Positions 32,581 to 56,926 are shown, counted from the stretch's first letter. The stretch: 64,000 nucleotides of DNA from Patescibacteria group bacterium (GCA_041662625.1 JBAZSB010000001.1:246467-310466); one strand, 5' to 3'. The notes: a model not told the origin generated them from the letters alone. A program made the numbers and translations.

Positions 32581-32768
32581 AAAATTAAAAGAATTACGAA
32601 TCAGCGTAATTCTCGGGTATCATTCCAATATGATAACAGTTTTTCGCTTTAATGTCAAAAATTATGTTAGTACGGAATTAAATGAGATAAAAAAAGCGGT
32701 TGGCAGCGGTAACCCTTTTGGGTCGTTGCTGTCAACCACTGTCAAAATAGAAAACGCTGGACTGTCCC

Positions 32769-34061
32769 TCAGTCAGCCAGTCGCTGGACTTCGCCGATGT
32801 TATCGACCACCTTCTGTACCGCCTTGGCGATGAGGTCCATGTTGCTTCTGGGACCCATCAAAATGGCATGGTGGACGACCACGCCACTGTGCTCGTTGGC
32901 TTCCTTACAGACCGACAGATCGAAGCGCTTGGGGTTAATCGCGTCCCAGTATTCATTGTCGAGGTGGTGACGCCGCTTGGTCCACGGCTTGTAAAGGTCG
33001 CACTTGTTCAATGAATCGTATGGCGGCTCGAAGGAACCGTCTTGGCCTTCTTCGAAACCGAGTTCGGCGTTCAGGGCCCGGCAGAATTTCCGATTGCCGA
33101 TTCCGAGATCCTCTGTGGCCAGACGAAACGCATAGTTGAAGTAGCTCTGCCGGGTGACTTGCGGCCGACGATACATCGTCAGAACGCCGGGAATCTGCTC
33201 CAACAGGCCGTTCAGATACTGGGCATTGTCATCGCGCTGGGCGACTTGTGCCGGTAAGCGGCTCAGTCCGCCAAGCAGGATTGCTGCTTGCCATTCCGTC
33301 AGCCGGCAGTTACCTGATTGCACGGTATTTCTTGGTTTGCCGGATCCTTCAAGGCCAAAGGCTTTGACGCCTGATTCGGCAAACGGCCGGCCGCAGTTAC
33401 GCAGCGAGTATAGCCGCTCGAACATCTTCCTGGTTTGGCAAGTGTTGTACCCGCCTTCACCACTGCTCAGGACTTTGGATTCCTGGAAGCTGAAGCAGCC
33501 AACATCGCTAAGGGTACCAACACCCTTGCCTTCCCATAACGAGCCGTGCTGGTGGGCGCAATCCTCAATGAGACGCAGATGGCGCTTCTTGCACAGTCGT
33601 TGCAGGCTTGCCATATCAGGCATGCAGCCGTAGAGATGCACGGCGATGACGGCTTTAGTCTTTGGCGTAATTGCCGCCTTGACCTTGTCGACGTCGATGC
33701 ACCAAGTGCTTGGTTCCACGTCAACCAGGATGGGAACGGCATTGACGTCGATGCAGGCCGCAGCCGTGGCTTGCCAGGTCATGCCTGGCACAATCACTTC
33801 ATCGAACGCGCCGATGTCGAGAGCTTCCAGCGCCAACTGGATCGCGACGGTTCCGTTGGCACAACAGGCACCGTATTTGGCGCCAAGGAAGGCAGCGAAC
33901 CGCCGGGCAAACTCCCATTCATAGGGGCCGTCATACGACCATTTCCCCGATCTGGTTATTGCCGCTAATCGTCTGACATCAGCTTCGTAGCCTCTTGGCC
34001 AGCGGGGCCATTTCTTACCAGGAGCAGCTACTGGCTTGCCACCGTTGATTGCCAGTTTCAT
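32769..34061 (-). CDS. DegT/DnrJ/EryC1/StrS-family PLP-dependent sugar aminotransferase, in a GC-rich island
   Basis: Fold-type I DegT pattern: ...KYGACCANGTVAIQLALEAL...VIAVHLYGCMPDM...LIEDCAHQHGS...GCFSFQESKVLSSGEGG. GGAGGGAGAAUC-AUG RBS. GC is much higher than the flanks. Confidence 0.8.
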   Translation of the reverse strand: MKLAINGGKPVAAPGKKWPRWPRGYEADVRRLAAITRSGKWSYDGPYEWEFARRFAAFLGAKYGACCANGTVAIQLALEALDIGAFDEVIVPGMTWQATAAACIDVNAVPILVDVEPSTWCIDVDKVKAAITPKTKAVIAVHLYGCMPDMASLQRLCKKRHLRLIEDCAHQHGSLWEGKGVGTLSDVGCFSFQESKVLSSGEGGYNTCQTRKMFERLYSLRNCGRPFAESGVKAFGLEGSGKPRNTVQSGNCRLTEWQAAILLGGLSRLPAQVAQRDDNAQYLNGLLEQIPGVLTMYRRPQVTRQSYFNYAFRLATEDLGIGNRKFCRALNAELGFEEGQDGSFEPPYDSLNKCDLYKPWTKRRHHLDNEYWDAINPKRFDLSVCKEANEHSGVVVHHAILMGPRSNMDLIAKAVQKVVDNIGEVQRLAD

Positions 34062-34201
34062 GATTCTCCCTCCTAAACGTGGAAGACAAAAAACGGAGGA
34101 ACACCCTCCTTGAACTTGCTAATTTTTTACCACGCCTGAATACAAAAGTCAATCTAAAACAAAAAACACTTGGCGATTAAACCAGTGTTTTTTAAACTAA
34201 C

Positions 34202-34699
34202 TTATTCAATCTTAATTACTTTGTATTCTATCACTGCATCTTTGGCCTTAATCCTTATTGTATCCCCAACTTTATGTCCTAAAATGGCCGAGCCAATCGG
34301 TGAATTGCGCGAGATAATGCCTTGGCTTGGATCAGTTTCCGAAGATCCCAGGATCAGATAAGTTTTTTGCTTGCCAGCAGTTTCAATAGTTACCTTGTGC
34401 CCCAGCTGAACCGTATCCGTGTTTTTGTTCGGCTTAATAATTACAGCGTGGTGCAGATAGTCTTCAAGCTCTAAAATTCTTTGGTTAATACTCCGCAGGT
34501 GTCCTTTGGCCATTTGATAAGCGGCATTTTCGGATAAATCACCCATCTCGGACAAACGCTTCACTTCCCGGGCTGCCTCCGGCTGGCTGGCTTTTAATTT
34601 GGCCAGCTTATCTTTAAATTCAATAAATTTATCCTCAGTCAAGTGAGGGTCAGGTTTGTCATGGGTATATTTACCCGGTTTTCTTATTGGTACTTGCAT
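34202..34699 (-). CDS. greA: Transcription elongation factor GreA
   Basis: Coiled-coil N-terminal domain plus FKBP-like C-terminal domain (…GDLSENAAYQMAKGH…ISRNSPIGSAILGHKVGD…). Confidence 0.85.
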   Translation of the reverse strand: MQVPIRKPGKYTHDKPDPHLTEDKFIEFKDKLAKLKASQPEAAREVKRLSEMGDLSENAAYQMAKGHLRSINQRILELEDYLHHAVIIKPNKNTDTVQLGHKVTIETAGKQKTYLILGSSETDPSQGIISRNSPIGSAILGHKVGDTIRIKAKDAVIEYKVIKIE

Positions 34700-34709
34700 C
34701 TAATTACTT

Positions 34710-34952
34710 TTAATTCTTTATTAGTTTTATTTTCTCTTGTCGCGACAAAGCTTTGATTCTAAATTCTTCTTTTTGGGCACTTGACCGGGTGCGAAACTTT
34801 TTTGAGTAAACCAGTTTAAGGGGCCGCCGCGATCTGGTATATTTTGCCCCAAGTTTTGACAAATTATGTTCTTTCAGTCTCTTTTGTAAATCAATGGCAA
34901 TACCAGTATAAAGTGTTTTATCAGCGCACTTGAGGATATAAAGATAATACAT
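34710..34952 (-). CDS. GIY-YIG nuclease-family small protein (UPF0213-like)
   Basis: MYYLYILKCADKTLYTGIAIDLQKRLKEHN. Confidence 0.75.
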   Translation of the reverse strand: MYYLYILKCADKTLYTGIAIDLQKRLKEHNLSKLGAKYTRSRRPLKLVYSKKFRTRSSAQKEEFRIKALSRQEKIKLIKN

Positions 34953-34971
34953 GCTTTGGTAATAATATTTT

Positions 34972-36207
34972 TTATTTTTGGCAAATATAAAATACGGGCG
35001 ACTTATCAGCCTGATCCTTTTTTGTCAGTGTGCTTCGGCGGTTGGCAGCGTCGGATTCTGAAAGTTTAGCCATCACGACAGTTTCAACCAGTTTAAACCC
35101 GGAATTTTGGATTTGCTTTTTGACTTCAGAAACGTTGGGGATATGGATATATTGCCATTGGTTTGTTTTTTTACCGTTGACGTTTCTTTGGAAAAAGCGG
35201 TCGCCAAATTCAAGTTCTTTAACCTTAAAGCCTAACGGTTTGAGAAGATAAAGTTTTAACCATTGCTTTAGCCAAAAAAATATATGGTACGGCGAATAGT
35301 ATCTTTGATGGGCGGTAAAAATAAAATAGCCACCAGGCTTTAAGACTCGATAAATTTCATCCAGGGCTTTCTGCCTTTTAGTCGAGCCGGGAATTTGCGT
35401 CCAGCCGTTATTGGCAAAAATCGCGTTGTCAAAAAAATTATTTTCAAATTCCAATTTGGTCGCGTCTCCTATCTGGTAATGAATATCCAACTTTTTAGCA
35501 GTGATGATTTTTTTGGCCGACTCAATCATCATGGGCGTAATATCAACGCCAAGAACTTGATAGCCTTTAAGATGCAAAGGAATAGTAGTGCGACCGGTGC
35601 CGCAGCCAATATCCAAAACACTGGAATTTTTTGGAAAATACTTGTCAATTACAATTTCCTCGCTTTGCCATAAGCCTTTCTCCGCCTGCGCCAAATACAT
35701 GTCTTTGGTCAGCTCAGAACTAAATTCATCTATAACGTCTTGCTGGAGCTCATTGGCGCAGTTAAAACTTTTTACTCGACTGGCGTTTATTAATTCTTCA
35801 GCCTTATTTTTATCTAAAAATTTGCCTAACTGATATTGCTTATCTGTCCGATTAGCAATAAACTGCACGGCAAAATCAGTAATTTTTCGTTGGACTGCAC
35901 CATCTACTTCCCTCTGTTCATCCATAAGCCTTGCTAAAATCTTATGGTCTGCTTGCCCATCTTCAAACCATTCCACCATTCCAACCGGTTCACACTCGAC
36001 AATACTGCTTATTGCCAGCTTTCTGTCTGAAATGACGTAACAATCTAAGCTGCCACCGTCAGACGCTTTAGTATCTAAAATATAGCCGTATGGATATGGA
36101 TAACTCAACGGAATTATGACAGTATCTAAAAATTTCCCGGTCTTTTCATCAAAGACATTTTTCTTGTTTAATTCACCAGTTTGTTCAATAAATACTTTTA
36201 TCACCAT
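34972..36207 (-). CDS. Fusion protein: inorganic-pyrophosphatase-like N-domain plus class I SAM-dependent methyltransferase C-domain
   Basis: N-terminal PPase-like segment (…EKTGKFLDTVIIPLSYPYPYGYILDTKASDGGSLDCYVIS…). C-terminal MTase motif I VLDIGCGTGRTTIPL plus post-I acidic loop. Confidence 0.6.
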   Translation of the reverse strand: MVIKVFIEQTGELNKKNVFDEKTGKFLDTVIIPLSYPYPYGYILDTKASDGGSLDCYVISDRKLAISSIVECEPVGMVEWFEDGQADHKILARLMDEQREVDGAVQRKITDFAVQFIANRTDKQYQLGKFLDKNKAEELINASRVKSFNCANELQQDVIDEFSSELTKDMYLAQAEKGLWQSEEIVIDKYFPKNSSVLDIGCGTGRTTIPLHLKGYQVLGVDITPMMIESAKKIITAKKLDIHYQIGDATKLEFENNFFDNAIFANNGWTQIPGSTKRQKALDEIYRVLKPGGYFIFTAHQRYYSPYHIFFWLKQWLKLYLLKPLGFKVKELEFGDRFFQRNVNGKKTNQWQYIHIPNVSEVKKQIQNSGFKLVETVVMAKLSESDAANRRSTLTKKDQADKSPVFYICQK

Positions 36208-37526: not shown

Positions 37527-37623
37527 GGTAGCCCCAAGCGGAATCGAACCGCTGTTACATGGATGCCACCCTATTGGGTGGTCGCCCGAAAGGGCGAAGA
37601 ACCTGGCGTCTCCCGACGTCGCC
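37527..37623 (-). other. tRNA-like 3' fragment (T-arm, acceptor 3' strand and encoded CCA) fused to the 26-nt motif shared with the tRNA-Gln locus; no matching 5' acceptor strand
   Basis: Minus-strand RNA ...catccatgtaac-agcgg-ttcgatt-ccgct-tggggct-a-cca. The required 5' partner agcccca is absent. Upstream is gcggcgacgtcgggagacgccag (motif at 37598..37623). Confidence 0.45.
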
Positions 37624-37733
37624 GCATGCTTATTTATTCATCTCATTTTTACCGCCACGGGGAATCTCCGCCGATGGCGGATGCGCCTTTTTTTATTAAT
37701 TAAGGTGGCGCAGAACCCCAAATATTGGCAATT

Positions 37734-37805
37734 TAGCCCGTGGGAGAATCGAACTCCCGTTACATGGATGAGAACCATGCGTCCTAGCCGCTAGACGAAC
37801 GGGCC
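37734..37805 (-). tRNA. tRNA-Glu (anticodon CUC)
   Basis: Manual fold: acceptor ggcccgt/acgggct (G1-U72), D-arm gtct-agcggcta-ggac, anticodon arm catgg-ttCTCat-ccatg, T-arm gggag-ttcgatt-ctccc, 72 nt. CCA not encoded. Confidence 0.8.
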
Positions 37806-37885
37806 ACGTATTTTGATTAGATTGGTAGACCGGTAGGTTGGTAGGTAGGCGCCTACCGTTCTACTCCCTACTTACTAACGGAAGT
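37806..37885. repeat. Intergenic palindromic repeat, family 1 (ggtagg/cctacc units plus gttagtaagtag), copy 1
   Basis: ...ggtagaccggtaggttggtaggtaggcgcctaccgttctactccctacttactaac... Confidence 0.65.
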
Positions 37886-38534
37886 CAAACCGGGAGCCGC
37901 GGCCTTTGAAAAAGACTAAGGCCAAAATCGGCAGAACAATCCAGCAAAACTTGCCTAAATCGCTTAAAAAAACTATTTGGGTAAAATGCGATAAATGCTC
38001 AACTGCAACACTGGGCAAAAATGAAAGGATGATACTAGCCAAAAGCCCGACTTGTAAAAGCGAAAAGATGATTACCTGCCACCAGCCGCCGGAAAGACTG
38101 CTGAAACCTTGAACCAAAACACTACGAGATAAAAAGACAAAGAGGAGGGCAAAGACAATCAGAAAAGCAGAAATTTGGAAAGAGAAAACCGAAATACTGT
38201 TTATCATTGTTGTCAGCTTATCCATATAAGGCAGATTGGTGGTAACAGCCAAAGCTAAATAGGTGCTGATTAAAATTGAGACGATCCGATTACGGCCTAA
38301 AGTGAAACTATAAATTAAAACGCTGACAATGAAAAAAAGTAGGATCACTATATCCCAGGTTGGCGTTGACCAGTCAATTCCTAAAAAACTAAACCAGATG
38401 TCTTTGCCGCCAGCGGCAGCTTGGTTTGCAACTGGCGTGACCTGCTCCTGAAGCGAATTGGCTAAGTCCATTAGGGTAGTGGTAGCGGTTTCTAGGGTCA
38501 TACATTTAGAATCAAGAATTAAGGGGCCGTTCAA
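37875..38534 (-). CDS. Polytopic membrane protein, unknown function
   Basis: 219 aa with 5-6 predicted TM helices; no recognisable motif. Confidence 0.5.
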   Translation of the reverse strand: MNGPLILDSKCMTLETATTTLMDLANSLQEQVTPVANQAAAGGKDIWFSFLGIDWSTPTWDIVILLFFIVSVLIYSFTLGRNRIVSILISTYLALAVTTNLPYMDKLTTMINSISVFSFQISAFLIVFALLFVFLSRSVLVQGFSSLSGGWWQVIIFSLLQVGLLASIILSFLPSVAVEHLSHFTQIVFLSDLGKFCWIVLPILALVFFKGRGSRFDFR

Positions 38535-38547: not shown

Positions 38548-39663
38548 TTAATCATTTTGTTCTAACTCTTTTAAAAGCTCTTTCTGGCGGCGGGATAATC
38601 GGGAAGGCGTTTTGACAATTATTTCAACCAACTGGTCACCCCGGCCGCGGCCATGAAGAATGGGTACACCTCTGCCTTTGAGCTGAAAGATTTTGCCGCT
38701 TTGGGTGGCTTCGGGAATTTTCAACCGAACCGTGCCGTCAAGAGTCTCAATATCAATTTTAGCACCTAAAGCCGCCTGAGTAAAAGAAATTTCTTTTTTA
38801 GTTTTCAAGTCAAAACCAGCTCGCTTAAACCGCAAGTCGGGCAAAACTTTGATGCGCAAATAAAGATCACCGGCTTGCCCGCCTTTATTGCCCGCCTGGC
38901 CTTTGCCGGCTAAACGGACAGTCTGGCCGTTATCAATTCCGGCCGGAATTTTAACTTTAATATGTTCAGTTTCTTTGGTGACACCCTGACCGCGGCACTG
39001 GCTGCATTCCTTTTCCGCTTTTTTGCCCGTACCTTCACAAGTGGGGCAGACACTGGGAAAGCCAATGCCAAAACCCATATTTCTCACCACTTGGCCGGTT
39101 CCCCGGCAAGTTGAGCAAGTCATGACTTTTGCGCCTGGTTCAGCGCCTTCGCCTTTGCATTTTTGACAGACACTATTTTTATTTAGGCTGAGTTCTTTTT
39201 CCGTACCAAAAACCGCTTCCTGAAAATCCAAGGTCAGCTCGGCTTCAATATCGGCACCCTGAAATTTACTAGCCCGGCGTGACTTGCTGCGGCTTGAGCC
39301 CATACCAAACAAATCACCAAAGATATCGCCTAAGTCGCCAAATTCAAAAGAGAAATTATTGCCGCCCTGGCCGCCTTGCTGGCCAAAAGCTGAAGCAAAA
39401 TCGGAAAAATCACGAAAGCCACCGGCACCAGAAAAACCGCCTTGTGAGCGGGCTTGTTCAAAAGTTTGGCCGTACTGGTCATACTGGGCTTTCTTTTCAG
39501 CGTTACCTAAAACGCTATAAGCCTCATTGATTTCTTTCATCTTGGCTTCATCGCCGCCTTTGTGCGGATGATGCTGATGGGCCATTTTGTAATAGGCTTT
39601 TTTAACTTCTTCCGGGCTGGCACCCTTAGAAATGCCTAAAGTTTGATAGTAGTCTTTTGCCAT
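38548..39663 (-). CDS. dnaJ: Chaperone DnaJ
   Basis: J-domain HPD (YYKMAHQHHPHKGG), G/F-rich region, four CxxCxGxG zinc-finger repeats. Confidence 0.9.
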   Translation of the reverse strand: MAKDYYQTLGISKGASPEEVKKAYYKMAHQHHPHKGGDEAKMKEINEAYSVLGNAEKKAQYDQYGQTFEQARSQGGFSGAGGFRDFSDFASAFGQQGGQGGNNFSFEFGDLGDIFGDLFGMGSSRSKSRRASKFQGADIEAELTLDFQEAVFGTEKELSLNKNSVCQKCKGEGAEPGAKVMTCSTCRGTGQVVRNMGFGIGFPSVCPTCEGTGKKAEKECSQCRGQGVTKETEHIKVKIPAGIDNGQTVRLAGKGQAGNKGGQAGDLYLRIKVLPDLRFKRAGFDLKTKKEISFTQAALGAKIDIETLDGTVRLKIPEATQSGKIFQLKGRGVPILHGRGRGDQLVEIIVKTPSRLSRRQKELLKELEQND

Positions 39664-39760
39664 AGGTTAGTAAGTAGGGCGGTAGGTTGGTAGGACGGTA
39701 GGATATTGAAATTATTCCTACCGATCTGCCGCTCTACCAACCTACTAATCTATTCTGCTT
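39664..39760. repeat. Intergenic palindromic repeat, family 1, copy 2 (about 30-bp imperfect stem)
   Basis: gttagtaagtagggcggtaggttggtaggacggtagga-N11-tcctaccgatctgccgctctaccaacctac. Confidence 0.7.
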
Positions 39761-42559: not shown

Positions 42560-42660
42560 TTGATTAATTTTTATTAGGAATTAGGAAGTTAAGAATTTAG
42601 GAGTTAGCACATTGTCTAAGTCTAATTCCTAATTTCCTAAATTCCTAAAGCCTAACTTCC
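42560..42660. repeat. Intergenic palindromic repeat, family 2 (aggaatt/aattcct units), copy 1
   Basis: ttaggaattaggaagttaagaatttaggagttag ... ctaattcctaatttcctaaattcctaaagcctaacttcctac. Confidence 0.7.
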
Positions 42661-43160
42661 TACTTCGCCACTTTCACCTTGGCCGGATAAATCACTTTAC
42701 CATGCAAAGTATAGCCGGCTTTGACTTCTTCAAAGATAACATCTGTTTCAAAACCTTCTTTTTCTTCATGACTGGCTGCTTCATGAAACTGGGGGTCAAA
42801 CTTTTCACCAACTGTTTTGATTTCTTCAATGCCAAGCTGTTTCAAAAAGTCTTCAAACTGTTTTTTAATATGGAAAAACCCAATTACCCAATCGGCTTTT
42901 TTTTGTTCGGGCGGCACATGCTGCAAAGCCAGTTTAAAATGGTCGAAAACCGGCAAAAGCTGGGCCACCAAAGCGGCATTGGCAAATTGGATTAATTCTC
43001 CTTGTCTTTTTTCGGTATCTTTCTTTAAATTCAAATAATCCGCCTTAGCCCGTTTCCAGCCGTCTAAATGTTCCTCGGCTTTTCTTTGGGCTAGCTCAAG
43101 TTCTGATTTTAGTTCATCGATATCAAAGTCGTTGTCTTGTTGTTGAGTTTTGTTTTGCAT
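42660..43160 (-). CDS. grpE: Nucleotide exchange factor GrpE
   Basis: Coiled-coil N-terminus, GrpE C-terminal beta domain, position within the hrcA-grpE-dnaK operon. Confidence 0.85.
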   Translation of the reverse strand: MQNKTQQQDNDFDIDELKSELELAQRKAEEHLDGWKRAKADYLNLKKDTEKRQGELIQFANAALVAQLLPVFDHFKLALQHVPPEQKKADWVIGFFHIKKQFEDFLKQLGIEEIKTVGEKFDPQFHEAASHEEKEGFETDVIFEEVKAGYTLHGKVIYPAKVKVAK

Positions 43161-43255
43161 AAATTAGTATTTAGTAAGTAGAACGGTAGATTGGTAGAAC
43201 GGTAGGTGCTTGCCTACCAATCTACTTTCCTACCGACCTACCGATCTAGGCTGTT
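43161..43255. repeat. Intergenic palindromic repeat, family 1, copy 3
   Basis: tttagtaagtagaacggtagattggtagaacggtagg-tgcttg-cctaccaatctactttcctaccgacctacc. Confidence 0.7.
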
Positions 43256-43965: not shown

Positions 43966-43992
43966 GCTTATTAGCACTCTCTTACTTAGAGT
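43966..43992. promoter_or_regulatory. CIRCE operator (HrcA binding site)
   Basis: TTAGCACTC-N9-GAGTGCTAA perfect inverted repeat upstream of hrcA. Confidence 0.9.
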
Positions 43993-44073
43993 GCTAATTT
44001 TATTCTAACTGGTTAGAAAATAGCTGTCAAGACTATTGGCATACCCTATATCAAAAGGTTTTAGTTAATTCAT

Positions 44074-44103
44074 TGACAGTCAAGTTACGATACGATAAAA
44101 TTA
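44074..44103 (+). promoter_or_regulatory. Sigma-70-like promoter for the plus-strand GC-island gene
   Basis: TTGACA - 17 bp - TAAAAT about 55 bp upstream of the 44161 start. SD GGAGGAG 6 nt before the ATG. Confidence 0.55.
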
Positions 44104-44160
44104 GAAGACATTTACCGCTCATTTGTCAGGAGGATACAGAATACACTGGAGGAGAATGGC

Positions 44161-44586: not shown

Positions 44587-44610
44587 CTGGAGGGTAAACC
44601 GGAATCATCA

Positions 44611-44648
44611 GTCTGGGACAGTAAGTTTAGGTCCCAGACTTTTTTTGT
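44611..44648 (+). terminator. Rho-independent terminator
   Basis: gtctgggac-(11 nt loop)-gtcccagac followed by TTTTTTTG. Confidence 0.8.
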
Positions 44649-44737
44649 TGCTTATTTTTAGATTAAAAAAAGAGAGTGTACATGCCACTCTCCATAAGAT
44701 TCCTCCACGAGTAATTTACCCCCCACTATTGTTGCGG

Positions 44738-45805: not shown

Positions 45806-45848
45806 ACGCTCTCCTTCTCCTGATCATCAGGTGGTTGACTGCGTTTCG

Positions 45849-46649
45849 TCAAAGTCCCAGCATTTGGTCCATCGTGTACCACCCAGCGGGTTTACCGGCA
45901 ATCCACTTAACCGTTGCCAACGCCCCTTCGGCAAAAACCTGGGGACTCTGAGCATGGTGCTCAAGGCACAGGGTTTCGCTTGGGCCGGCGAAGAGCACTG
46001 CGTGGTCACCGGCGATACTGCCAGCCCTGAGGGAATGAATGACGACCTGCTCGTCAAGTCTGGGGCTCTCGCTACGCCCAGCTTGACGACCGACGCTGAT
46101 CGCTAATTCAGGATTCCATTCCCGGGATTGACAGACGGTCTGAGCCAACATCCTGGCGGTGCCGCTGGGCGCATCCAGCTTTCGGCCATGGTGAGCCTCA
46201 ACAATCTCGATCTGAAAATACGGCGGCAGAGCCTTGGCCATTTTAGCCAACACTGCATTCATCACGTTGACGCCCAGGCTGAAGTTATTCGACACCAGCA
46301 CGGGCACGCTTCCGCTGAGCACTCTCAACGAAGCCAAGCGGGTTTCGCCCAAGCCTGTCGTGGCCACGACCACAGCGGTCTTGGTTTTGGCGGCGGACTC
46401 GGCTTGCACCACCACAGAATCCGGATCGTTGTTGAAGATCAACAGAACGTCAATGCCTGCAGTAGCTTGGGCGGGTAATGGTTCGCCTGGTTTGACTTGA
46501 ATCGTGCTGGTCGTGACCAAGCGGGTATCGATTCCAGAAACCGGACCGATACCAGGTTCTTTTATGGCTAATGCCTCAACCAACTGGCCCATTCTTCCCC
46601 CTACTCCTGAGATAATCAAACTTACTGGTTTCATCGTTCGCTCCTCCAA
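45849..46649 (-). CDS. Dihydrodipicolinate-reductase-like (DapB-family) oxidoreductase, GC-rich; probable start 46634
   Basis: N-terminal GVGGRMGQ dinucleotide-binding motif; C-terminal DapB-like domain (…EIVEAHHGRKLDAPSGTA…). Confidence 0.65.
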   Translation of the reverse strand: MEERTMKPVSLIISGVGGRMGQLVEALAIKEPGIGPVSGIDTRLVTTSTIQVKPGEPLPAQATAGIDVLLIFNNDPDSVVVQAESAAKTKTAVVVATTGLGETRLASLRVLSGSVPVLVSNNFSLGVNVMNAVLAKMAKALPPYFQIEIVEAHHGRKLDAPSGTARMLAQTVCQSREWNPELAISVGRQAGRSESPRLDEQVVIHSLRAGSIAGDHAVLFAGPSETLCLEHHAQSPQVFAEGALATVKWIAGKPAGWYTMDQMLGL

Positions 46650-46744
46650 TTTAGGGACACAAGGTTAAACACGACACTCACTAAACTAGCTCTAAATTAC
46701 CCCATTTCTTCCCTTAATGTCAATTTTTATGGTAAAATAATAAT

Positions 46745-48609: not shown

Positions 48610-48639
48610 TAAAAAAAGGGGTGCTACCCTTTCACAAAG

Positions 48640-49110
48640 AACGATTTTAGGGGCGACGAAGGTCTGCCAACTGCTTTCTGAAAGTCGCGACTTCTTGTTG
48701 GTGTGATATCTCACGATGAGATGTCAGGTGGCGAGAATTGCAGTCGCCACGGTGAATCCAAGAAGGCAAACATTCGGGATTGTACGCACTTGGGAGTGTG
48801 TCTGTCATATGGAGTGGTCTTCGAATCAAACACCCCCCATCTTTACCACAGACGCAGCAAAGATGATTCTCGTAGGCAATCCGGCGCCTTACTGCCTGTC
48901 GGGCCTCCTCTCCCTCTGGCAGCCATAAAGCTGATTGTTCGTGCCGGTGGCGACACCGGCCCTGATGGACAGACTTTACTTCTCCAGCCGGGTTGTAGTG
49001 ACTCCTTAGTGAAGTCGCTGTTAGTGGCCAAAAAGGCCACCAAGTGATACCCTGACAGACGCAACATGTCTTACTGAATATGCCGGTTAGTTTGGGCATC
49101 ATACAAAGGA
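48640..49110. other. GC-rich, about 470-bp insert separating prfA from prmC; coding status doubtful, possibly a structured RNA or a degraded gene
   Basis: Only mutually antisense ORFs (151 aa on minus, 114 aa on plus) with no protein-like features. No convincing RBS. A sharp GC jump against the AT-rich flanks. Confidence 0.35.
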
Positions 49111-49152: not shown

Positions 49153-50028
49153 ATGTCAAGGATAAAAAATAACAATAATACAAGGAATGAAATTAAAAAA
49201 ACCTTGGTTTTAGTTACCAGGTCTTTAAAATCAGCTAAAATTACAACTGCCCTACTTGATGCTGAAGTATTGCTAGCCTTTGTTTTGAAAAAGCCGAAAG
49301 AATTTTTATATACTCACCCTGAATATAAGCTAAATAAACAGCAACTAGCTCAGTTGAAACAAATGGTGAATCGGCGAGGCAAGGGTGAACCAGTGGCTTA
49401 CTTAAGAAATACTAAAGAATTTTATGACCTGGATTTTTATGTTGATAAACGTGTCTTAATCCCCCGTCCGGAAACAGAAGTATTGGTTGAAGAAGTGCTT
49501 AAGCAGTTCAGAGTTCAGAGTTCAGAGTTCAGAGCTATTGCTGATATTGGCACGGGATCTGGATGTATTGCAATTACCTTGGCTAAACATCTGCCAAAAG
49601 CTAAGATTTTAGCAACTGACATCTCTAAGTTAGCTCTAGATGTGGCTAGAAAAAACGCTAAAAAACATCAGGCTAAGATAAAATTTTATCATGGTGATTT
49701 ACTGGAACCACTAAAAAATAAAAGAATTGACATTATCGTTGCCAATCTTCCCTATTTGGATAATTACTATAAATCTTCAAAAAATCCTGGTTTAAAATTT
49801 GAGCCAAAAACCGCTTTAGAAGGTTACCAACAAGGTTTGGCAGTCTATGAAAAACTCTTCAAACAAATTGCCGGCCTAAAACATAAACCGAAAATAATCA
49901 TCTGCGAAATTGGACCAACGCAGGCGGAAAAAATGAAAAGGCTAACAAAAAAATACCTGCCTAAAAGTAAAACAGAAACAAAAAAAGACTTAGCCGGACT
50001 AAATCGTTTATTGATTACTAAGATTTAA
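49153..50028 (+). CDS. prmC: Release factor glutamine N5-methyltransferase PrmC/HemK
   Basis: NPPY-type motif VANLPY; motif I ADIGTGSGCIAI; directly downstream of prfA. Confidence 0.9.
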   Translation: MSRIKNNNNTRNEIKKTLVLVTRSLKSAKITTALLDAEVLLAFVLKKPKEFLYTHPEYKLNKQQLAQLKQMVNRRGKGEPVAYLRNTKEFYDLDFYVDKRVLIPRPETEVLVEEVLKQFRVQSSEFRAIADIGTGSGCIAITLAKHLPKAKILATDISKLALDVARKNAKKHQAKIKFYHGDLLEPLKNKRIDIIVANLPYLDNYYKSSKNPGLKFEPKTALEGYQQGLAVYEKLFKQIAGLKHKPKIIICEIGPTQAEKMKRLTKKYLPKSKTETKKDLAGLNRLLITKI

Positions 50029-50345
50029 AAAAAGAGACCTTAGTCAGTCAAGCTTACCAAACCAAGGCTTCTTATGAAGCAAGGTACGAACTATCAGGTG
50101 AGACGATGAATCGGACGAACTCTATCGCCCTGATAACGACCCCAAAAGTCCGGGTCTGGCTCAGGCCGATACGCCGGGATAGAGTCCATTATCGCCTGTA
50201 TGGTTGCAGCCGCTTCTGCGAACTCGTCCATAACCTGTCCTCCTATTAGACACGGGTTTATCCTTATAAATAATCTAACAAGATAATATAATTTTGGCAA
50301 ATAAAAAAAGACTTAGCCGGGCTAAATCGTTTGTTAATTGTTAAG
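49981..50345. repeat. Imperfect 42-bp direct repeats (49981..50022 and 50303..50345) duplicating the 3' end of prmC and bracketing a 270-bp GC-rich insert
   Basis: aaaaaagacttagccgg[ag]ctaaatcgttt[ag]tt[ga]att[ag][ct]taag seen in both copies; 5 mismatches in 42 positions. Confidence 0.75.
50094..50231 (-). CDS. 45-aa ORF inside the GC-rich insert, with a perfect AGGAGG RBS
   Basis: AGGAGGACAGGUU-AUG precedes MDEFAEAAATIQAIMDSIPAYRPEPDPDFWGRYQGDRVRPIHRLT. Confidence 0.45.
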   Translation of the reverse strand: MDEFAEAAATIQAIMDSIPAYRPEPDPDFWGRYQGDRVRPIHRLT

Positions 50346-50361: not shown

Positions 50362-50982
50362 CTATCTATTCCCGTTTCTAATAATATTTTCCACCGCCGC
50401 CCATTTACTCTCGCCGTCATCAGGCGTCAAAATTACCACTTCATCACCTGGCGCCCCATGGAAATAAGTGACTGACGCCGTCAGCAATTTCCATTTCTTT
50501 TTGCCGTCAACCGCATACCACTCGCCGGCTTTTTCGTCCTGGACTAAAGTGGCCACCAATTGTTTTCTTTCCACCGGACCAATTTGTTTATAAATAAAAG
50601 AACCATCTTTGCGGATGGTTAATTTCAAAATATCACCTTCAACTAGTTTTGATTTCGAGGCATAATTGGCCGGCACGTTATATTCAATCCCGTCACCCCC
50701 AACCATCTTTTCACCGGTAAAAACGCCTTCGATAATCCGTTCACTGCCTTCGCTTAAATTAATAAAGCCTTCACTGGCTTCTTTAGTATCTTTAAGGCTA
50801 TCAAGTAAAGCAGCCGGATTAACATCTTTTTCATTCAATAACTTCAAAGCTTTCTTGATATTAGCTTGAGTATTTTCTAAAATATCCTTCAATAAATCCA
50901 AATGACGTTTGGTATCTTCGTCATCTAATTCTGGAGTTTCAAAGTTTTCGTCTTTTTGATTTTTTTTCTTTTTTCCCACCAT
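50362..50982 (-). CDS. Hypothetical protein (206 aa)
   Basis: Charged N-terminal region; no recognisable motif. Confidence 0.5.
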   Translation of the reverse strand: MVGKKKKNQKDENFETPELDDEDTKRHLDLLKDILENTQANIKKALKLLNEKDVNPAALLDSLKDTKEASEGFINLSEGSERIIEGVFTGEKMVGGDGIEYNVPANYASKSKLVEGDILKLTIRKDGSFIYKQIGPVERKQLVATLVQDEKAGEWYAVDGKKKWKLLTASVTYFHGAPGDEVVILTPDDGESKWAAVENIIRNGNR

Positions 50983-50999
50983 TTTTATTTTTATTAATT

Positions 51000-51536
51000 T
51001 TATTTTTGGTAAAGATAGATTGTGGCTTTTTTTGGGTTTGGTTTATCAACGATTTTGGGCGGCCAACCGGGCAGGCTGAAGGCATAAGAAACAATCCGGC
51101 AGCCGGGTTTAGTTTCTTTTTCTAATTTTGGTTTTATTTTTTTCATGGCTGGCGGGGTCAAAAACATGCAAATGACATCAGCCTGGCTTAGATCCTGACT
51201 GAAAAAATTGGCATATTTGAGCTTAACTTTCCCCGCTAAGCCCCTTAATATTATTTTAGTATACCCTAGCAGATATGGCAAGGTAGCAATTTCAAATCCG
51301 GTCGCTTTAGCGCCAAATTCTGTTGCCGCAATGATGATAATTCGGCCATCGCCGGCGCCCAAGTCATAAACAATTTCTCCGGGTTTAACCTCAGCAATTT
51401 TCATCATTCGCCGGATGTCGTCTTTCCAAAGCGGTACCCAGGGAGCAGCAGAAATTCCACCCAAAACAAAGGTGCCGAGTATCAAAAACAAAAAAATAAT
51501 GAATAACACCCAAAAAATAAAGATTAAAACCGTCAT
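51000..51536 (-). CDS. Membrane-anchored class I SAM-dependent methyltransferase
   Basis: N-terminal TM helix; motif I VYDLGAGDGRIIIIAA. Confidence 0.65.
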   Translation of the reverse strand: MTVLIFIFWVLFIIFLFLILGTFVLGGISAAPWVPLWKDDIRRMMKIAEVKPGEIVYDLGAGDGRIIIIAATEFGAKATGFEIATLPYLLGYTKIILRGLAGKVKLKYANFFSQDLSQADVICMFLTPPAMKKIKPKLEKETKPGCRIVSYAFSLPGWPPKIVDKPNPKKATIYLYQK

Positions 51537-54106
51537 AAGGACCGCTCCAGCGGCGGATTAAATTCATCGGCCTTTCTTAAACCAAGCTGACTACGCCGCG
51601 AAACATCAGCTTCGACTTTTTTCCGGTCAGCCCCGTATTTCCAGCGGGAAAATTCTTTAATTTCCGAAGCAATATCCTTGTTGCCAATTTTAGGGGGAAA
51701 AGCATGAAAATTGAAAGCCCGCGCCGGCTGATTATCAATCAATAATCTCACATAAGCATTAAATTTTTCAATATTCATCAAATCATACTCATCAACGACT
51801 GGCGCCATTTGTTTGGCGATTTCCTCGGCATCTTCCGGGCCAATCCGAAAAGCAGCAATCGTACCGACATTACCAAAGATAGCGTCTTTAACTTTATTCC
51901 CCTGGTTTTTGCCTTCCGGTCCGCTACTTTCAGTTAATTGCCCGATATACTGATGGGCTAAAATTAAATTAAGTTTATATTTTCTGGCTTCGGCTAAAAT
52001 TGTAGCGATACTATCAGTAATAAAGTTTTGGAACTCATCAATATATAAATAAAAATCATGACGCTTTTCTTCAGAAATATCTGTTCGTGACAAAGCCGCC
52101 ATTTGAAGTTTAGCCACAATAATTAGCCCCAGCAAATTACTGTTAACTTCGCCCGTTGTACCTTTAGCCAAATTAACTAATAATATTTTTTGCTGATCCA
52201 TCACTTCACGAAAATTAAAGCCGGATTTTGGTTGGCCGATGATATTTCTGATCATTTGATTTTCCACAAACCGGCCAACCTTGGAAATTAAATAGCCAAG
52301 CATTTCTGATTTATGGAAGTCGGAAGTTTTGGCCATTTCCTGTTCCCAAAACGACCGGACCATCGGATCAGTAACTTTAGTCAATTTATATTTTTGGAAA
52401 TCTTTGTCCGTAAACATCCGAGGGATTTCGGCAATCGTGCCTGGATATTCCCGATCCGCCATCAAAGTCAGCATAGCATTTCTCATGTTATGCTCAAACA
52501 TTGGGCCAATCATTGAAGGATCGGTGACCAATTTATAAAAAATCGAAATCATTTCTTGAATCGCAAAATCCTGCTGGTCAATGGTTTCTGCTTCCAACAT
52601 ATTCAAACCAATTGGCCGCTCCATATCAGAAGGATTGAAATAAATTACATCTTCTACTCTTTCTTTAGGGACATGGGGTAAAATATCTTCAACAAAACTA
52701 CCGTGCGGATCAATGATACAGACACCTTTACCATTTTTAATATCCTGAACCGCTAAATTAATCAATAAATTAGATTTACCAGTTCCGGTCATCCCGATGA
52801 TATAAAGATGACGCCGTCGGTCGTTAGTTTTTAAATAAATATTACTCGTTACGCCGCGATAAATATTTTCCCCCAGTAATATTCCTTCCTCGCCTAAATT
52901 AGACGGCGGGGGTAATCTTTTGGCCAAAAGCCACCGGACATTTGGCGTTTCCAAATAAGGGGTGGGAAAATGAAAGAGACTGGCCAATTCTTCCGTGTTT
53001 AAAATCAATTTTTGGTTATGATGAAAAGTCCGATAAATGAAGCTACTCACAAGCTTGTTGGCTGATTCTTTAACTAATTTAAAGCTGTTGCCATATTGGT
53101 AAAAATTGAACTGAGCAAAGGAATCAACGACGCTATTGAGATGCGCTTCAGCCCTGGCTTTATCCGGCGCTGAGGCAACAATTCTAATATTGCAATCCAG
53201 GCCGGCTTTAGAGGTTTTTTCTTCTAAACCTTTAACTAATTCTTGCTCCATCGGCGAAAGAGTCCTTGGGGCTTTAACTTTTTCCGCCTCAATTTGCTTT
53301 GCGGTCTTAGTATTAAATAAATTAAAAACACTACTAAAACTCAATTTGGACATTGCTTCATTAACGGTTTTTCCTTTCTGAACTTCAGTGGCCACTCTTG
53401 AACCTTTGGCGTGCCAGCCTTTTTTAGCCGACCGGGCGATAATTTGAATCGCAACGCCGTCGGTCTTATTAATTTTGCTCAAGGAATTAGTAACGGCATT
53501 CAAGGGGTCAGTGCCCAATTTTTGGTAAGTTTTGATGGGAAAAATATAACTGCGGGTAAATTTTAAATAACCGGTTATTACCTCCTCTTGGGGCGAAAAA
53601 ATATTATAATCCTGGACTTCAGACAAATTCGCTTCGGGATGTTGGGCCAAAATTTGCTGTTCCAGATGGTTTTGTAGATATTTAGGAGCGGCGACATAAA
53701 AAGAAATTAAACCATCCCGGGCAACAATCTCAAAAGAAAAAACATCAGTCCTGCCCCAAAACCAGGCCCGTAGTCCGCGCTGGGCTTTTAGGCCACCGAT
53801 AGTTGAAAGCCAGCTTTCGGCCAAAGAAATCTGGCTGCGAATTTGCTCAATAGTTTTTTCTTGATCAGCCGATTCAGCCGATTCCTTGGGGACGGTGACT
53901 AAAAAAATTACTTTTTGGAATGCCGCCGGCAAAAAATTCCTCAATCGTAATAATGCCCTAATCAAAAAAACCAAGATAACCAAAAGTATTATCAAGGTTA
54001 ATATATCAATGGCGATAAAAAGGTATGCCTGGTTAATTGTCACTGTCGGATCAATGGTCGGATATTGGGGGCTAGGAACACCAAATTGAGTTGCCAGTAA
54101 ACTCAT
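51533..54106 (-). CDS. VirD4/TraG/TraD-like coupling-protein ATPase (T4SS DNA-binding domain), membrane-anchored
   Basis: N-terminal TM; Walker A IIGMTGTGKS; Walker B YLYIDEFQNF; 857 aa. Confidence 0.6.
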   Translation of the reverse strand: MSLLATQFGVPSPQYPTIDPTVTINQAYLFIAIDILTLIILLVILVFLIRALLRLRNFLPAAFQKVIFLVTVPKESAESADQEKTIEQIRSQISLAESWLSTIGGLKAQRGLRAWFWGRTDVFSFEIVARDGLISFYVAAPKYLQNHLEQQILAQHPEANLSEVQDYNIFSPQEEVITGYLKFTRSYIFPIKTYQKLGTDPLNAVTNSLSKINKTDGVAIQIIARSAKKGWHAKGSRVATEVQKGKTVNEAMSKLSFSSVFNLFNTKTAKQIEAEKVKAPRTLSPMEQELVKGLEEKTSKAGLDCNIRIVASAPDKARAEAHLNSVVDSFAQFNFYQYGNSFKLVKESANKLVSSFIYRTFHHNQKLILNTEELASLFHFPTPYLETPNVRWLLAKRLPPPSNLGEEGILLGENIYRGVTSNIYLKTNDRRRHLYIIGMTGTGKSNLLINLAVQDIKNGKGVCIIDPHGSFVEDILPHVPKERVEDVIYFNPSDMERPIGLNMLEAETIDQQDFAIQEMISIFYKLVTDPSMIGPMFEHNMRNAMLTLMADREYPGTIAEIPRMFTDKDFQKYKLTKVTDPMVRSFWEQEMAKTSDFHKSEMLGYLISKVGRFVENQMIRNIIGQPKSGFNFREVMDQQKILLVNLAKGTTGEVNSNLLGLIIVAKLQMAALSRTDISEEKRHDFYLYIDEFQNFITDSIATILAEARKYKLNLILAHQYIGQLTESSGPEGKNQGNKVKDAIFGNVGTIAAFRIGPEDAEEIAKQMAPVVDEYDLMNIEKFNAYVRLLIDNQPARAFNFHAFPPKIGNKDIASEIKEFSRWKYGADRKKVEADVSRRSQLGLRKADEFNPPLERSL

Positions 54107-54111
54107 TTATT

Positions 54112-54603
54112 TTATTTTAAGTGGATTATTTTATCGGTTTTTATTTTAGCTTCTTGGCGAATAAAGAATTTGCTGACTCCGGGGATAATCTTTAGCCAAG
54201 CCAAAATCAGCTTAAAAATTTTTTTAGTTTTTACTTTAGTCTTAGCTAAAATTTTTTCAATTTGCTTAGCTGTATCTTCGCCTTTAGCTTTGAATTGTTG
54301 CCTCAGCGCCGGGTCCATCTTAAAATAGGCATCTTCTAATTCTTCTTCCAAAATACCTTCAATTTTAATCAACGCCTCACTTTTATCCAAAGGCACAATT
54401 TTTGCTGCCATTGCTGGCGGCGGGATAGGGGTTGGTTTAAACCCCGCTTCCTTTTCTTGGGCAACTTCAGCCACTCCTTCTTCTACTGGTTCACTTTCCG
54501 GCTTTACCAGCTTTTCTTTTGACTCCGGCTCAAATTCTTTTGGCGGAATTATCTCGCGCCTAGGGGTTGGTTCAGTTTGTTTTTGAAAAAATTGAGGGCT
54601 CAT
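54112..54603 (-). CDS. Hypothetical Glu/Lys-rich protein (163 aa)
   Basis: Low-complexity charged protein; only a 5-nt gap from the upstream ATPase gene. Confidence 0.45.
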   Translation of the reverse strand: MSPQFFQKQTEPTPRREIIPPKEFEPESKEKLVKPESEPVEEGVAEVAQEKEAGFKPTPIPPPAMAAKIVPLDKSEALIKIEGILEEELEDAYFKMDPALRQQFKAKGEDTAKQIEKILAKTKVKTKKIFKLILAWLKIIPGVSKFFIRQEAKIKTDKIIHLK

Positions 54604-54716
54604 ATATCCTAATTATAATACAAAAAACCAAAAATTACCAGCTCTTCTTTCCTAGCAAGGCTAATTATGGTATTATATAAGTAATTTAGATACTCAATAT
54701 TATTAATTAAATCTCT

Positions 54717-55649: not shown

Positions 55650-55676
55650 TCCCCTATATATTTTCCAAATAGTTTT

Positions 55677-55707
55677 ACCCCAACACTAAAGTGTCATGGG
55701 GTTTTTA
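55677..55707 (+). terminator. Probable intrinsic terminator of corA
   Basis: accccaacac-taaa-gtgtcatggggt hairpin followed by TTTTTAT. Confidence 0.5.
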
Positions 55708-55824
55708 TATTGACAAAAATAGGATATTATGATACTTTCAAATGATGTTCATTTTGTTATAGTGATTGAGGAGAGAAGCAAGGGAATCACATTCTTCCAT
55801 TAGGAAGGAAGGAAGGAGCAAGTC

Positions 55825-56067
55825 ATGGCGAAGTTATTGTCTGATAAAGACATAGTCTGTAGACGTACAACAGGATGTCGAGGCACTGACCGGGTCAGAC
55901 GATACGCTTGTGGCTGCAGGCGAGAGACAAATGAAAATCCGCATAGCCCAGAATGTCTGGCCAGTATGCGGGTCAATAGCCGCGGCAATCGTTCCTGCGG
56001 TCAACCCGGAGAACCTGAAACACACACTGCTCGGAGACGAGCAAGGAGGTGCGCATGTCGACACTAG
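55825..56067 (+). CDS. Cys/Arg-rich 80-aa ORF, first gene of the GC-rich three-gene unit; coding status uncertain
   Basis: GGAAGGAAGGAAGGAGC SD-like run 5 nt before the ATG. Its stop overlaps the next gene's start (ATGTCGACACTAG). Composition is unusual (15 Arg, 8 Cys). Confidence 0.35.
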   Translation: MAKLLSDKDIVCRRTTGCRGTDRVRRYACGCRRETNENPHSPECLASMRVNSRGNRSCGQPGEPETHTARRRARRCACRH

Positions 56068-56342
56068 CCCCTACCACAGATCTGACGAGTTTGGTCTACA
56101 CGATTCTGACAATGGCCGCGCCGGGAGCGTGGATGGAGGACGCAGTACCCGTTCTTACTGCTGCTTGTGCGGCAGAAGTATTTGGCGGGTCTACTGCCAA
56201 CGTCATCGTGATCGTTGGCAATCATGGCCTTGATGACATCAAAAAGGCCCTGGGGTTGTCCACCGACACCTTGGGCTTTACACACGAAGTTATCGATGGC
56301 CAAACCGCAAGCCAGCGCGGACTACTCCCGCCACAACGATAG
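56055..56342 (+). CDS. Hypothetical 95-aa protein, GC-rich unit gene 2
   Basis: AAGGAGG 5 nt before the ATG. MSTLAPTTDLTSLVYTILTMAAPGAWMEDAVPVLTAACAAEVFGGSTANVIVIVGNHGLDDIKKALG... Confidence 0.55.
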   Translation: MSTLAPTTDLTSLVYTILTMAAPGAWMEDAVPVLTAACAAEVFGGSTANVIVIVGNHGLDDIKKALGLSTDTLGFTHEVIDGQTASQRGLLPPQR

Positions 56343-56361
56343 ACAGGAAGGAAAGCAAACG

Positions 56362-56559
56362 ATGCAGATCCCAGAATTCGGAGTAGCAGACTGCGACGGA
56401 CAGAAACGTCCGGTCAGGGTGACCAAGGTGGCCATAAGCGTCGAATTCCTCGACACACACGAAAGTGGCGAGGTCACGGCTGAACAAATCGTTCACACTT
56501 CCTGGAGCGGAGCTGATGCAGCCAACGACGCCAAGGCTCTGAGCGAAAAGCAGCCATAG
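56362..56559 (+). CDS. Hypothetical 65-aa protein, GC-rich unit gene 3
   Basis: GGAAGGAAAG 7 nt before the ATG. MQIPEFGVADCDGQKRPVRVTKVAISVEFLDTHESGEVTAEQIVHTSWSG... followed by a terminator. Confidence 0.5.
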   Translation: MQIPEFGVADCDGQKRPVRVTKVAISVEFLDTHESGEVTAEQIVHTSWSGADAANDAKALSEKQP

Positions 56560-56582
56560 TCCCTCCCCCTCCTCACTGCGAA

Positions 56583-56637
56583 GAGCCCCGCGTCTGAACT
56601 GTAATGGTTCGGACCGGGGCTCGCATTTTTTTATTAA
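56583..56637 (+). terminator. Rho-independent terminator closing the GC-rich three-gene unit
   Basis: gagccccg ... cggggctc stem followed by gcaTTTTTTTaTT. Confidence 0.7.
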
Positions 56638-56926
56638 AAAATTGGAACTAACTACCGCAACCAACCCAAAAATTTTTAAATTTAAATCAATAATGATGGT
56701 TCAAGGGATGGGGGTTTGGGGGTCAACTTTGAGCCCACTGCGAGCCGGAAGAGATTTGATTGGCGTTAAAGGCGAATAGTTGACCCCCAAAACTTTTGGT
56801 TACTTTTGGTTACAAAAGTAACCCCTGCCGGAGGCAAAAGCTAAAAAGTAGGTTAGAGATTTGATTGGCCTGGGTGATAGAAAGAGAAAAATAACTTATT
56901 AGAGCTTATAATCATTAAAGAAACAT

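Follow-up and report, generated by a model that had tools for sequence, protein, structure and literature searches.

GC-rich, Shine-Dalgarno-led gene cassettes of probable horizontal origin between housekeeping genes of a Buchananbacteria-like Patescibacteria chromosome

A 64,000-nucleotide stretch from a Patescibacteria group bacterium (GCA_041662625.1, JBAZSB010000001.1:246467-310466; hereafter the window, positions being counted from its first letter), part of a 922,082-bp contig of a metagenome-assembled genome (NCBI proteins MFA62546xx, locus tags WC675_), carries five short islands rich in guanine plus cytosine (GC). We put the probability at roughly 75% that these islands are horizontally acquired accessory cassettes in an AT-rich, Buchananbacteria-like chromosome poor in Shine-Dalgarno (SD) sequences. 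The closest species representatives, designated with other related genomes and loci as L003, L004 and so on, are Buchananbacteria-like, with prfA identities of 69-74%. Each island occupies an intergenic gap between conserved housekeeping genes: greA-typA (island 1), hrcA-membrane gene (island 2), prfA-prmC (island 3), prmC-hyp206 (island 4) and corA-dus (island 5). Pfam and NCBIfam searches identified the flanking genes prfA, prmC, corA, dus, hrcA and greA, and bore out the gene content that an earlier sequence-only reading had assigned to the islands, namely a DegT aminotransferase and a group formed by a hypothetical protein, a Gfo/Idh/MocA oxidoreductase and a DapB-like protein.

The GC content of the window is 42%, and 40.9% once the islands are removed, against the 35-40% earlier estimated for the backbone; the islands, put at 55-60%, measure 52-56%, and four of the five are outliers. 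Islands 1 (32683-34121, 55.9%), 2 (44112-46619, 54.1%) and 5 (55836-56672, 54.4%) exceed all equal-length windows elsewhere in the 64 kb (z = 3.7-4.7), and island 3 (48649-49099, 52.5%) falls in the top 0.2%. Island 4 (50038-50276) is unexceptional at 49%, in the top 7% of such windows; over the coordinates first proposed for it the value is 45%, although its 45-codon open reading frame (ORF) stands at 56%. Codon usage also sets the island genes apart: relative to host genes, their GC at two-fold third positions gives z = 2.3-7.9 and their content of Gly, Ala, Arg and Pro (GARP) z = 1.3-5.9, the balance between GARP and Phe, Tyr, Met, Ile, Asn and Lys (FYMINK) being deviant as well.

The islands differ from their surroundings in their expression signals too. 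Eight of nine island ORFs are preceded by an SD core of at least 5 nt, as opposed to one of 50 other ORFs (Fisher p = 3.6e-8), and a terminator hairpin was found at every island; the strong ribosome-binding sites and the terminators noticed by the sequence-only reading are both real. Each island is a transcription unit complete in itself, in which a sigma-70-type promoter (TTGACA-type, in AT-rich surroundings) and a long leader with a strong GGAGG-type SD precede between one and three ORFs, and an intrinsic terminator closes the unit. The sole host gene with a clear SD encodes a pyrophosphatase-methyltransferase fusion (34972-36207). In about 15 of 38 host genes a TANNNT (-10-like) box lies 3-10 nt ahead of the start codon, and this closeness to the ATG suggests that leaderless mRNAs and leaderless translation may be widespread among host genes. 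High-GC Buchananbacteria were considered as the source of the SD signal and rejected, as the 57% GC genome L011 also lacks SD sequences. The island genes that have a close orthologue show ratios of nonsynonymous to synonymous divergence (dN/dS) of 0.10-0.33, and are therefore real genes under purifying selection. These data support the view that the island genes are compositionally and translationally foreign.

Sharp steps in GC content could also arise if fragments of a GC-rich organism had been stitched into an AT-rich contig, as the sequence-only reading had allowed. Nothing else favors such chimerism. Contigs from four other datasets (SRR18595301, ERZ27249449, SRR6484324 and JGI Ga0172379) jointly cover every island junction at 99.88-100% identity, and some of them differ from the window by a few single-nucleotide polymorphisms, from which we conclude that they stem from independent populations. 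Reproduction of the junctions in these datasets excludes an assembly artifact; moreover, homologous islands lie at equivalent positions in other species, and the island promoters are AT-rich like those of the host. We give this explanation essentially no credence.

Island 1 offers the clearest view of an insertion. Its features are:

32659-34201, minus strand: whole insert, from the greA stop codon to the typA -35 box, as placed by alignment with an empty site
34122-34152, minus strand: DegT promoter, TTGACT, 17-nt spacer, TAAAAAAT; kept in the L083 cassette
34087-34109, minus strand: leader hairpin GGAGG-GUGUU-CCUCC followed by a U-run, upstream of the true SD at 34066-34074
32769-34061, minus strand: pyridoxal phosphate-dependent aminotransferase of the DegT/DnrJ/EryC1 family, 430 aa (Pfam PF01041, E = 4e-80)
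32690-32742, minus strand: intrinsic terminator of DegT; a homologous terminator is found in L083

Besides the DegT cassette, the insert includes an AT-rich tail and a terminator hairpin that is new to greA. In L094, a close relative (TypA 94%, GreA 88% identity; synonymous divergence, dS, 0.6-0.7), the site is empty: greA and typA are 97 bp apart, with the greA TAA, 9 nt and the typA TTGACA box in succession. Alignment with this empty site revealed no target-site duplication. The same junctions are present in L093. A second DegT copy, 76% identical, occurs in L083, another AT-rich genome (32-39% GC), where it lies beside a different gene. Because the L083 copy keeps the promoter, the leader hairpin (AGGAGGGTGKTCCTCC plus a T-run; at about 770-795 of L083, as GGAGGGTGGTCCTCC plus TTATTTT) and the homologous terminator in this different context, the cassette as a whole is the unit of transfer. 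The leader hairpin, in which an SD-like GGAGG pairs with CCUCC, might act as an attenuator or regulate by SD mimicry. The DegT gene itself has 57% GC overall and 0.66 at third codon positions (GC3). Its PF01041 score of 270 bits, against a gathering score of 19.8, places the protein in the DegT/DnrJ/EryC1/StrS family; it reaches no NCBIfam equivalog cutoff, and its best match in the Protein Data Bank (PDB), over the full length, is an L-glutamine:2-deoxy-scyllo-inosose aminotransferase (E = 3e-87).

Island 2 holds three genes, one on the plus strand and two on the minus strand:

44073-44101, plus strand: hyp141 promoter, TTGACA, 17-nt spacer, TAAAAT
44161-44586, plus strand: hyp141, orphan protein of 141 aa, GC 52%, SD GGAGG, terminator 44610-44646
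44738-45805, minus strand: Gfo/Idh/MocA oxidoreductase (Gfo), 355 aa, identified by Pfam, GC 55%, terminator 44661-44693
45849-46634, minus strand: DapB (4-hydroxy-tetrahydrodipicolinate reductase family), 261 aa, read from the ATG at 46634, SD GGAGG

The -35 box of the DapB operon is at 46718-46723. On the host side, island 2 is bounded by a CIRCE operator (controlling inverted repeat of chaperone expression; 43970-43998, TTAGCACTC-N9-GAGTGCTAA) that lies upstream of hrcA and is kept in relatives. The N-terminal Rossmann and C-terminal domains of Gfo both score above the Pfam gathering thresholds, and the protein misses the NCBIfam equivalog cutoff for inositol 2-dehydrogenase (150 against 355). 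Its best PDB matches are 3q2k and 3q2i (E = 6e-47), named 'oxidoreductase' and 'dehydrogenase' in their records, which we take to be WlbA sugar-nucleotide 3-dehydrogenases; some Gfo homologues are labelled UDP-N-acetyl-2-amino-2-deoxyglucuronate dehydrogenase by JGI. DapB passes the NCBIfam TIGR00036 cutoff (160 bits against 122) and so qualifies as a member of that equivalog. Judged from these matches, DegT and Gfo could plausibly form an oxidation-transamination couple making an amino sugar or an aminocyclitol, with DapB as a presumptive co-operonic reductase. The matches recall known couples of a WbpB/WlbA-type sugar 3-dehydrogenase with a WbpE/DegT-type aminotransferase, and the aminocyclitol 2-deoxy-scyllo-inosose aminotransferases; the chemistries are complementary. 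As a difference, the two genes lie 10 kb apart in the window, do not neighbour each other in the donor-type genomes examined and fall below the NCBIfam equivalog cutoffs.

DegT and Gfo are also the two genes that point to a donor. We surveyed the named homologues among the best 120 matches for each. DegT has two or three short-contig matches at 69-76%, followed by matches at 60-66%, and all five named homologues are from Hydrogenedentes (62-64%). For Gfo, matches at 75% and 64% are followed by others at 51-58%, and all 12 named homologues belong to Hydrogenedentes/Hydrogenedentota (52-58%). The cluster members of unnamed NCBI matches added almost no taxonomy. The donor-type genes have 61-65% GC, GC3 of 0.82-0.83 and SD sequences, in genomes of 63-65% GC. 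With GC3 values of 0.59-0.66, the window genes stand between these and the host (about 0.4), and therefore fit partial amelioration. These comparisons support derivation of DegT and Gfo from a high-GC, SD-using lineage, probably one close to Hydrogenedentota. The earlier proposal that the islands came from a high-GC donor thus stands for DegT and Gfo, the two genes with a traced distant homologue, the small ORFs being orphans.

The proposal that the acquisitions are recent likewise holds for a part of the islands. Island 1, with its empty site in L094, and island 4 fit it; islands 2, 3 and 5 do not, given that related species carry homologues of them at the same positions. L003-L010 and L087 share a conserved order of genes between grpE-hrcA and dus, and within this frame the hrcA-membrane gene, prfA-prmC and corA-dus gaps range in length from 17 bp to 2.2 kb. 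In relatives these gaps contain further ORFs that are led by an SD and raised in GC, a number of which are small and rich in Cys. Presence of the islands is patchy, with empty sites at prfA-prmC in L004, L005, L006 and L009, and at corA-dus in L006 and L009. Islands 2, 3 and 5 are common to species with prfA identities of 72-80%, and on this distribution are older than islands 1 and 4. For island 2, L089 (GCA_041643015.1) carries all three genes in the same gap. The hyp141 orthologue there is 84% identical and at the same position (dN/dS 0.33), while a word-based search of 5.8e9 proteins found one other hyp141 cluster only. DapB is 87% identical in L089, and 44-47% in L007 and L009, in which it occupies the same gap; Gfo homologues in this gap are 75% (L087) and 64% (L089) identical.

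The figures for Gfo run counter to species relatedness, L087 being more distant than L089. Relative to L089, the flanks, hyp141 and DapB mostly show 87-97% nucleotide identity and the Gfo ORF alone 53-74%; correspondingly, dS is 1.53 for Gfo and 0.29-0.58 for hyp141, DapB and hrcA. Relative to L087, the membrane gene and Gfo have dS values of 0.53-0.56, as opposed to 0.98-1.47 in prfA and dnaK. The membrane gene and Gfo share more recent ancestry with L087 than prfA and dnaK do. This synonymous-site mosaic, which as a proxy points to tree incongruence, leads us to conclude that islands have been exchanged and replaced among related lineages through homologous recombination, with core genes as the anchors. 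In L089, the membrane gene beside DapB contains two tandem insertion sequence (IS) copies of the IS3 family (70-2396 of JBGGHJ010005584.1; HrcA 97%) and is cut to 26 codons by the insertion.

Islands 3 and 5 occupy the other two variable gaps:

48647-49102, minus strand: isl3 protein, 151 aa, with two CxxC...(Y/F)NPxG...H..C repeats; SD GGGAGGG
55704-55738, plus strand: promoter-like site of island 5 (TTGACA at 55710), upstream of a leader of 86 nt
55825-56067, plus strand: isl5_A, Cys/Arg-rich protein of 80 aa; SD AAGGAG
56055-56342, plus strand: isl5_B, orphan of 95 aa; SD AAGGAGG; called in ENA and Logan assemblies
56362-56559, plus strand: isl5_C, orphan of 65 aa; operon terminator 56583-56633

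The gene for isl3, which shares the prfA terminator hairpin (48611-48633), does separate prfA from prmC, as had been noticed, and yet it is no fresh insertion: orthologues lie at prfA-prmC, in the same position and on the same strand, in L003, L007, L008, L087 and L173, and isl3 is an old, clade-restricted resident gene. Its Cys and His columns are conserved (dN/dS 0.17), and an exhaustive HMMER search recovered four clusters of the family among 1.8e9 representatives. The AlphaFold2 model (mean predicted local distance difference test score, pLDDT, 78) gave no significant fold match in the PDB (best E = 1.6). From its repeats, isl3 would be a tandem zinc-finger-like orphan. Its C-terminal half is saturated at synonymous sites relative to L173, in which the dS of prfA is 0.66; no alignment was obtained for the prmC N-terminus of the same relative. 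As for island 5, isl5_A has a homologue of equal length in the corA-dus gap of L003 (pairwise E = 6e-5). The match of isl5_B to a 137-aa ORF in the same L003 gap is weak (E = 0.021) and non-significant in pairwise comparison, so that homology of island 5 is claimed for isl5_A only.

Several points weigh against a foreign origin of all the islands. GC at the four-fold sites of isl3 is host-like (0.42), and because part of its GC excess comes from its Cys/Arg/Gly/Pro content, this gene could be native. The DegT genes of the window and L083 are both GC-rich in spite of synonymous saturation (dS 1.57), a combination better explained by repeated acquisition or by selection than by slow amelioration. 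The donor assignment relies on few named matches, and hyp141, isl3, the island 4 ORF and isl5_A to isl5_C are orphans with no known donor. The exact donor and the direction of transfer are things that we infer, and any mechanism of insertion is at best putative, island 1 being devoid of a target-site duplication and the island 4 repeat admitting several origins. One could thus envision that the islands, or at least islands 3 and 5, are ancestral clade-specific genes, whose GC content and SD sequences reflect amino-acid content and selection for expression. The positional orthologues in several species, the four-fold GC of isl3 and isl5_A (0.41-0.42), the richness of both in Cys, Arg and Gly, and the confinement of the isl3 family to the clade would all agree with this. 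However, the genes are patchily distributed, the gaps being empty in L004, L005, L006 and L009; GC at two-fold third positions is still 2.3-4.3 standard deviations above the host; the C-terminal half of isl3 is saturated relative to a species whose prfA is not; SD use is unlike that of nearly all host genes; and for DegT and Gfo there is clear outgroup evidence. A native origin is, on balance, unlikely.

Given that their ORFs have no Pfam matches and that the codon-position GC pattern of isl5_A is atypical, islands 3, 4 and 5 might also be read as genes for structured non-coding RNAs, GC-rich in an AT-rich genome. This is barely credible. No Rfam match was found in the islands, even at E <= 1, and the only Rfam matches across the window are two tRNAs; an SD sequence is correctly spaced ahead of every ORF, the Cys/His columns of isl3 are conserved under a low dN/dS, and isl5_A aligns as a protein with its positional homologue.

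Island 4 is the smallest and differs in being bounded by a direct repeat, a feature already reported by the sequence-only reading:

49976-50028, plus strand: repeat copy 1, the in-frame prmC 3' end with a bidirectional terminator hairpin
50029-50298, minus strand: insert of 270 bp, with promoter-like TTGCCA-17-TAGATT (50300-50272) and SD AGGAGG
50094-50231, minus strand: 45-codon ORF, terminated by the copy-1 hairpin; independently called in L175 and L176
50299-50351, plus strand: repeat copy 2, a prmC 3' end displaced from its context, used as terminator by the convergent gene 50362-50982

The repeat is a duplication of the prmC 3' end, 53 nt long with 85% identity between copies. Both copies resemble genuine prmC ends, and the upstream extension of copy 2 still resembles prmC of L006. 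In six of seven relatives (L003, L004, L006, L007, L008 and L010) the prmC-hyp206 gap is 3-102 bp; in L009 it reaches 974 bp, with unrelated ORFs inside. A direct repeat of the targeted end (attL/attR) is left by integrative elements that insert at the 3' terminus of a gene or tRNA, and island 4 is similar in that the gene is intact and the second copy displaced. It differs in its size (only 270 bp), in the absence of an integrase there or in the window and in the coincidence of the repeat with a terminator hairpin. No integrase or recombinase is encoded in the insert, which holds the 45-codon ORF only. Campbell-type or homology-facilitated recombination explains the repeat as well as site-specific integration does; these two and an integrase remnant all stand as candidates.

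Delivery of all islands by one mobile mechanism, as originally suggested, would imply one element family (integron-like cassettes, a miniature inverted-repeat transposable element (MITE) or other transposon, or an integrative element) and one donor. The common architecture of promoter, SD leader and terminator, the single donor phylum of DegT and Gfo, the two IS3 copies beside island 2 in L089 and the duplicated gene end at island 4, to which a tRNA-Glu locus with a similarly displaced 3' half may be added, are in keeping with this idea. Against it, all-against-all comparison of the junctions revealed shared A/T runs and no common motif, and no integrase, transposase or relaxase is present in the window. 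PHROGs, PADLOC and searches for phage, plasmid and viral sequences gave no match. Island 1 has no target duplication, the ages of the islands differ (island 1 is missing in L094, and islands 2, 3 and 5 are shared across species), and the inserts at island 4 and at tRNA-Glu are unrelated in sequence. More specifically, an integron is contradicted by the absence of IntI integrase from the window, by the dispersion of the cassettes and by ends that share no imperfect inverted-repeat site. No repeats of the IS, MITE or transposon kind occur at the island ends, and there is no second copy in the window or in the other loci. PHROGs, PADLOC and NCBIfam returned nothing for the small ORFs, islands 3-5 had no blastn match among phages or plasmids, IMG/VR yielded nothing when scanned with isl5_B, with hyp141 or with the aligned isl3 family, and PADLOC models detected no anti-phage defence. 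A single mechanism or event is accordingly improbable.

Horizontal acquisition of accessory cassettes, our preferred explanation, could proceed as follows. Cassettes would enter the clade from GC-rich bacteria and then undergo partial amelioration. Within the clade they would pass between lineages, whole ORFs being replaced by other alleles through homology of the flanking core genes; recombination tracts are seen, and uptake of DNA is the probable preceding step. The hrcA-membrane gene, prfA-prmC and corA-dus gaps would be long-lived variable hot spots, and islands 1 and 4 younger insertions, specific to their lineage, that arose through illegitimate or short-homology recombination. It is tempting to go further and regard the SD-led, GC-rich cassettes as an exchangeable Buchananbacteria gene pool, seeded by Hydrogenedentota, placed at fixed hot spots by hairpin- or terminator-associated recombination and set apart by their strong SD, which would impose a translation regime of their own in a genome otherwise leaderless or SD-less. 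The duplicated prmC end at island 4 and the displacement of a tRNA-Glu 3' half are hints of such a route. We hold this extension to be rather unlikely; if true, it would make Hydrogenedentota a candidate host or close physical associate.

The islands invite analogies with the morons of prophages, reportedly described by Hendrix and colleagues as autonomous promoter-gene-terminator units of deviant GC content inserted between conserved genes. They would resemble morons in having their own promoter and terminator, a deviant composition, a place between genes that in relatives stand next to each other, and variable presence. Unlike morons, they are chromosomal, lie between housekeeping genes with no prophage around them and have no phage-family matches.

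Among the remaining features of the window, the tRNA-Glu locus is of some interest. An intact tRNA-Glu(CUC) of the L008 type (37733-37806, minus strand) is followed by about 168 nt of GC-rich hairpins and a displaced tRNA 3' half (37529-37566), which matches the corresponding half of the L006-type tRNA-Glu at 100% identity. Aligned homology with L087 ends nearby, at 37875. The locus looks like a replacement or integration scar. Hairpin repeats of the GGTAGG/CCTACC type lie between genes of the hrcA-grpE-dnaK-dnaJ cluster (37810-37890, 39659-39740 and 43164-43248), with the motif also in L004; CCTAATTCC-type repeats occur elsewhere, also at 42575-42666 and 59083-59127. These intergenic repeats resemble repetitive extragenic palindromic (REP) elements. 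Between the island 5 terminator and dus lies a structured element (56708-56820, plus strand) with a long stem GGGGGTTTGGGGGTCAACT...AGTTGACCCCCAAAAC followed by TTTTGGTTACTTTTGGTTACAAAAG (fold z = -2.7). A second copy, in the distant Patescibacteria locus L048 (16708-16905; prfA 58%), keeps the outer stem and tail, and its inner stem shows a compensatory change (TCAACT/AGTTGA in the window, TAATTG/CAATTA in L048). Neither Rfam nor viral sequences gave a match to the element. Positions 56750 and 56855 carry the two copies of a 15-nt direct repeat, AGAGATTTGATTGGC, and prmC contains a tandem heptamer, GTTCAGA x3 (49509-49535), that encodes a short repeated peptide.

In the relatives, gap ORFs occur in L003 (7233-8879, two 235-aa paralogues), L008 (17855-18130), L007 (16511-16699) and L006 (8797-9084), and the small Cys-rich gap proteins of L007 and L008 have the motif CCVCxKIxV..QW...SHGYCPxC in common. 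The first part of the window (1261-17719), where GC is slightly raised (43-47%), encodes a series of very large proteins, secreted or on the surface, whose genes lack an SD, including a 2072-aa protein with VWA, PA14 and SdrD_B domains and proteins containing LTD and DUF642 domains. Between islands 4 and 5 (50362-54603, minus strand) is a conserved cluster of four genes that includes one for a VirB4/TrwB-like ATPase of 857 aa; the cluster is syntenic in all relatives and probably belongs to the type IV secretion system described in Patescibacteria (PMC12102498).

Horizontal transfer in Patescibacteria, also known as the candidate phyla radiation (CPR), has been documented as segments of foreign composition in streamlined genomes, with exchange mostly within Patescibacteria and some donors from other phyla (PMC12455944, mSystems 2025); by their divergence, most of these transfers are not recent (PMC12455944). 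The window is a well-resolved new example of such islands and no new kind, and it leaves current views standing. Compared with the islets of that study, its units are tiny (0.3-2.6 kb), form a single transcription unit each and sit at syntenic intergenic hot spots; Hydrogenedentota, the outside donor proposed here, is missing from that paper's donor table; and the contrast between SD-led islands and an SD-less host is explicit in the window.

What the window provides is a junction-verified view of accessory genes being acquired and reshuffled in an ultra-small symbiotic bacterium, in which single-operon cassettes at hot spots, partial amelioration and ORF-precise allele replacement are visible together. 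The consistent Hydrogenedentota signal of two enzymes is a testable lead on the possible partner of this uncultured organism, and the isl3 orphan and the dichotomy between SD-led and SD-less genes are small, concrete targets for CPR biology.

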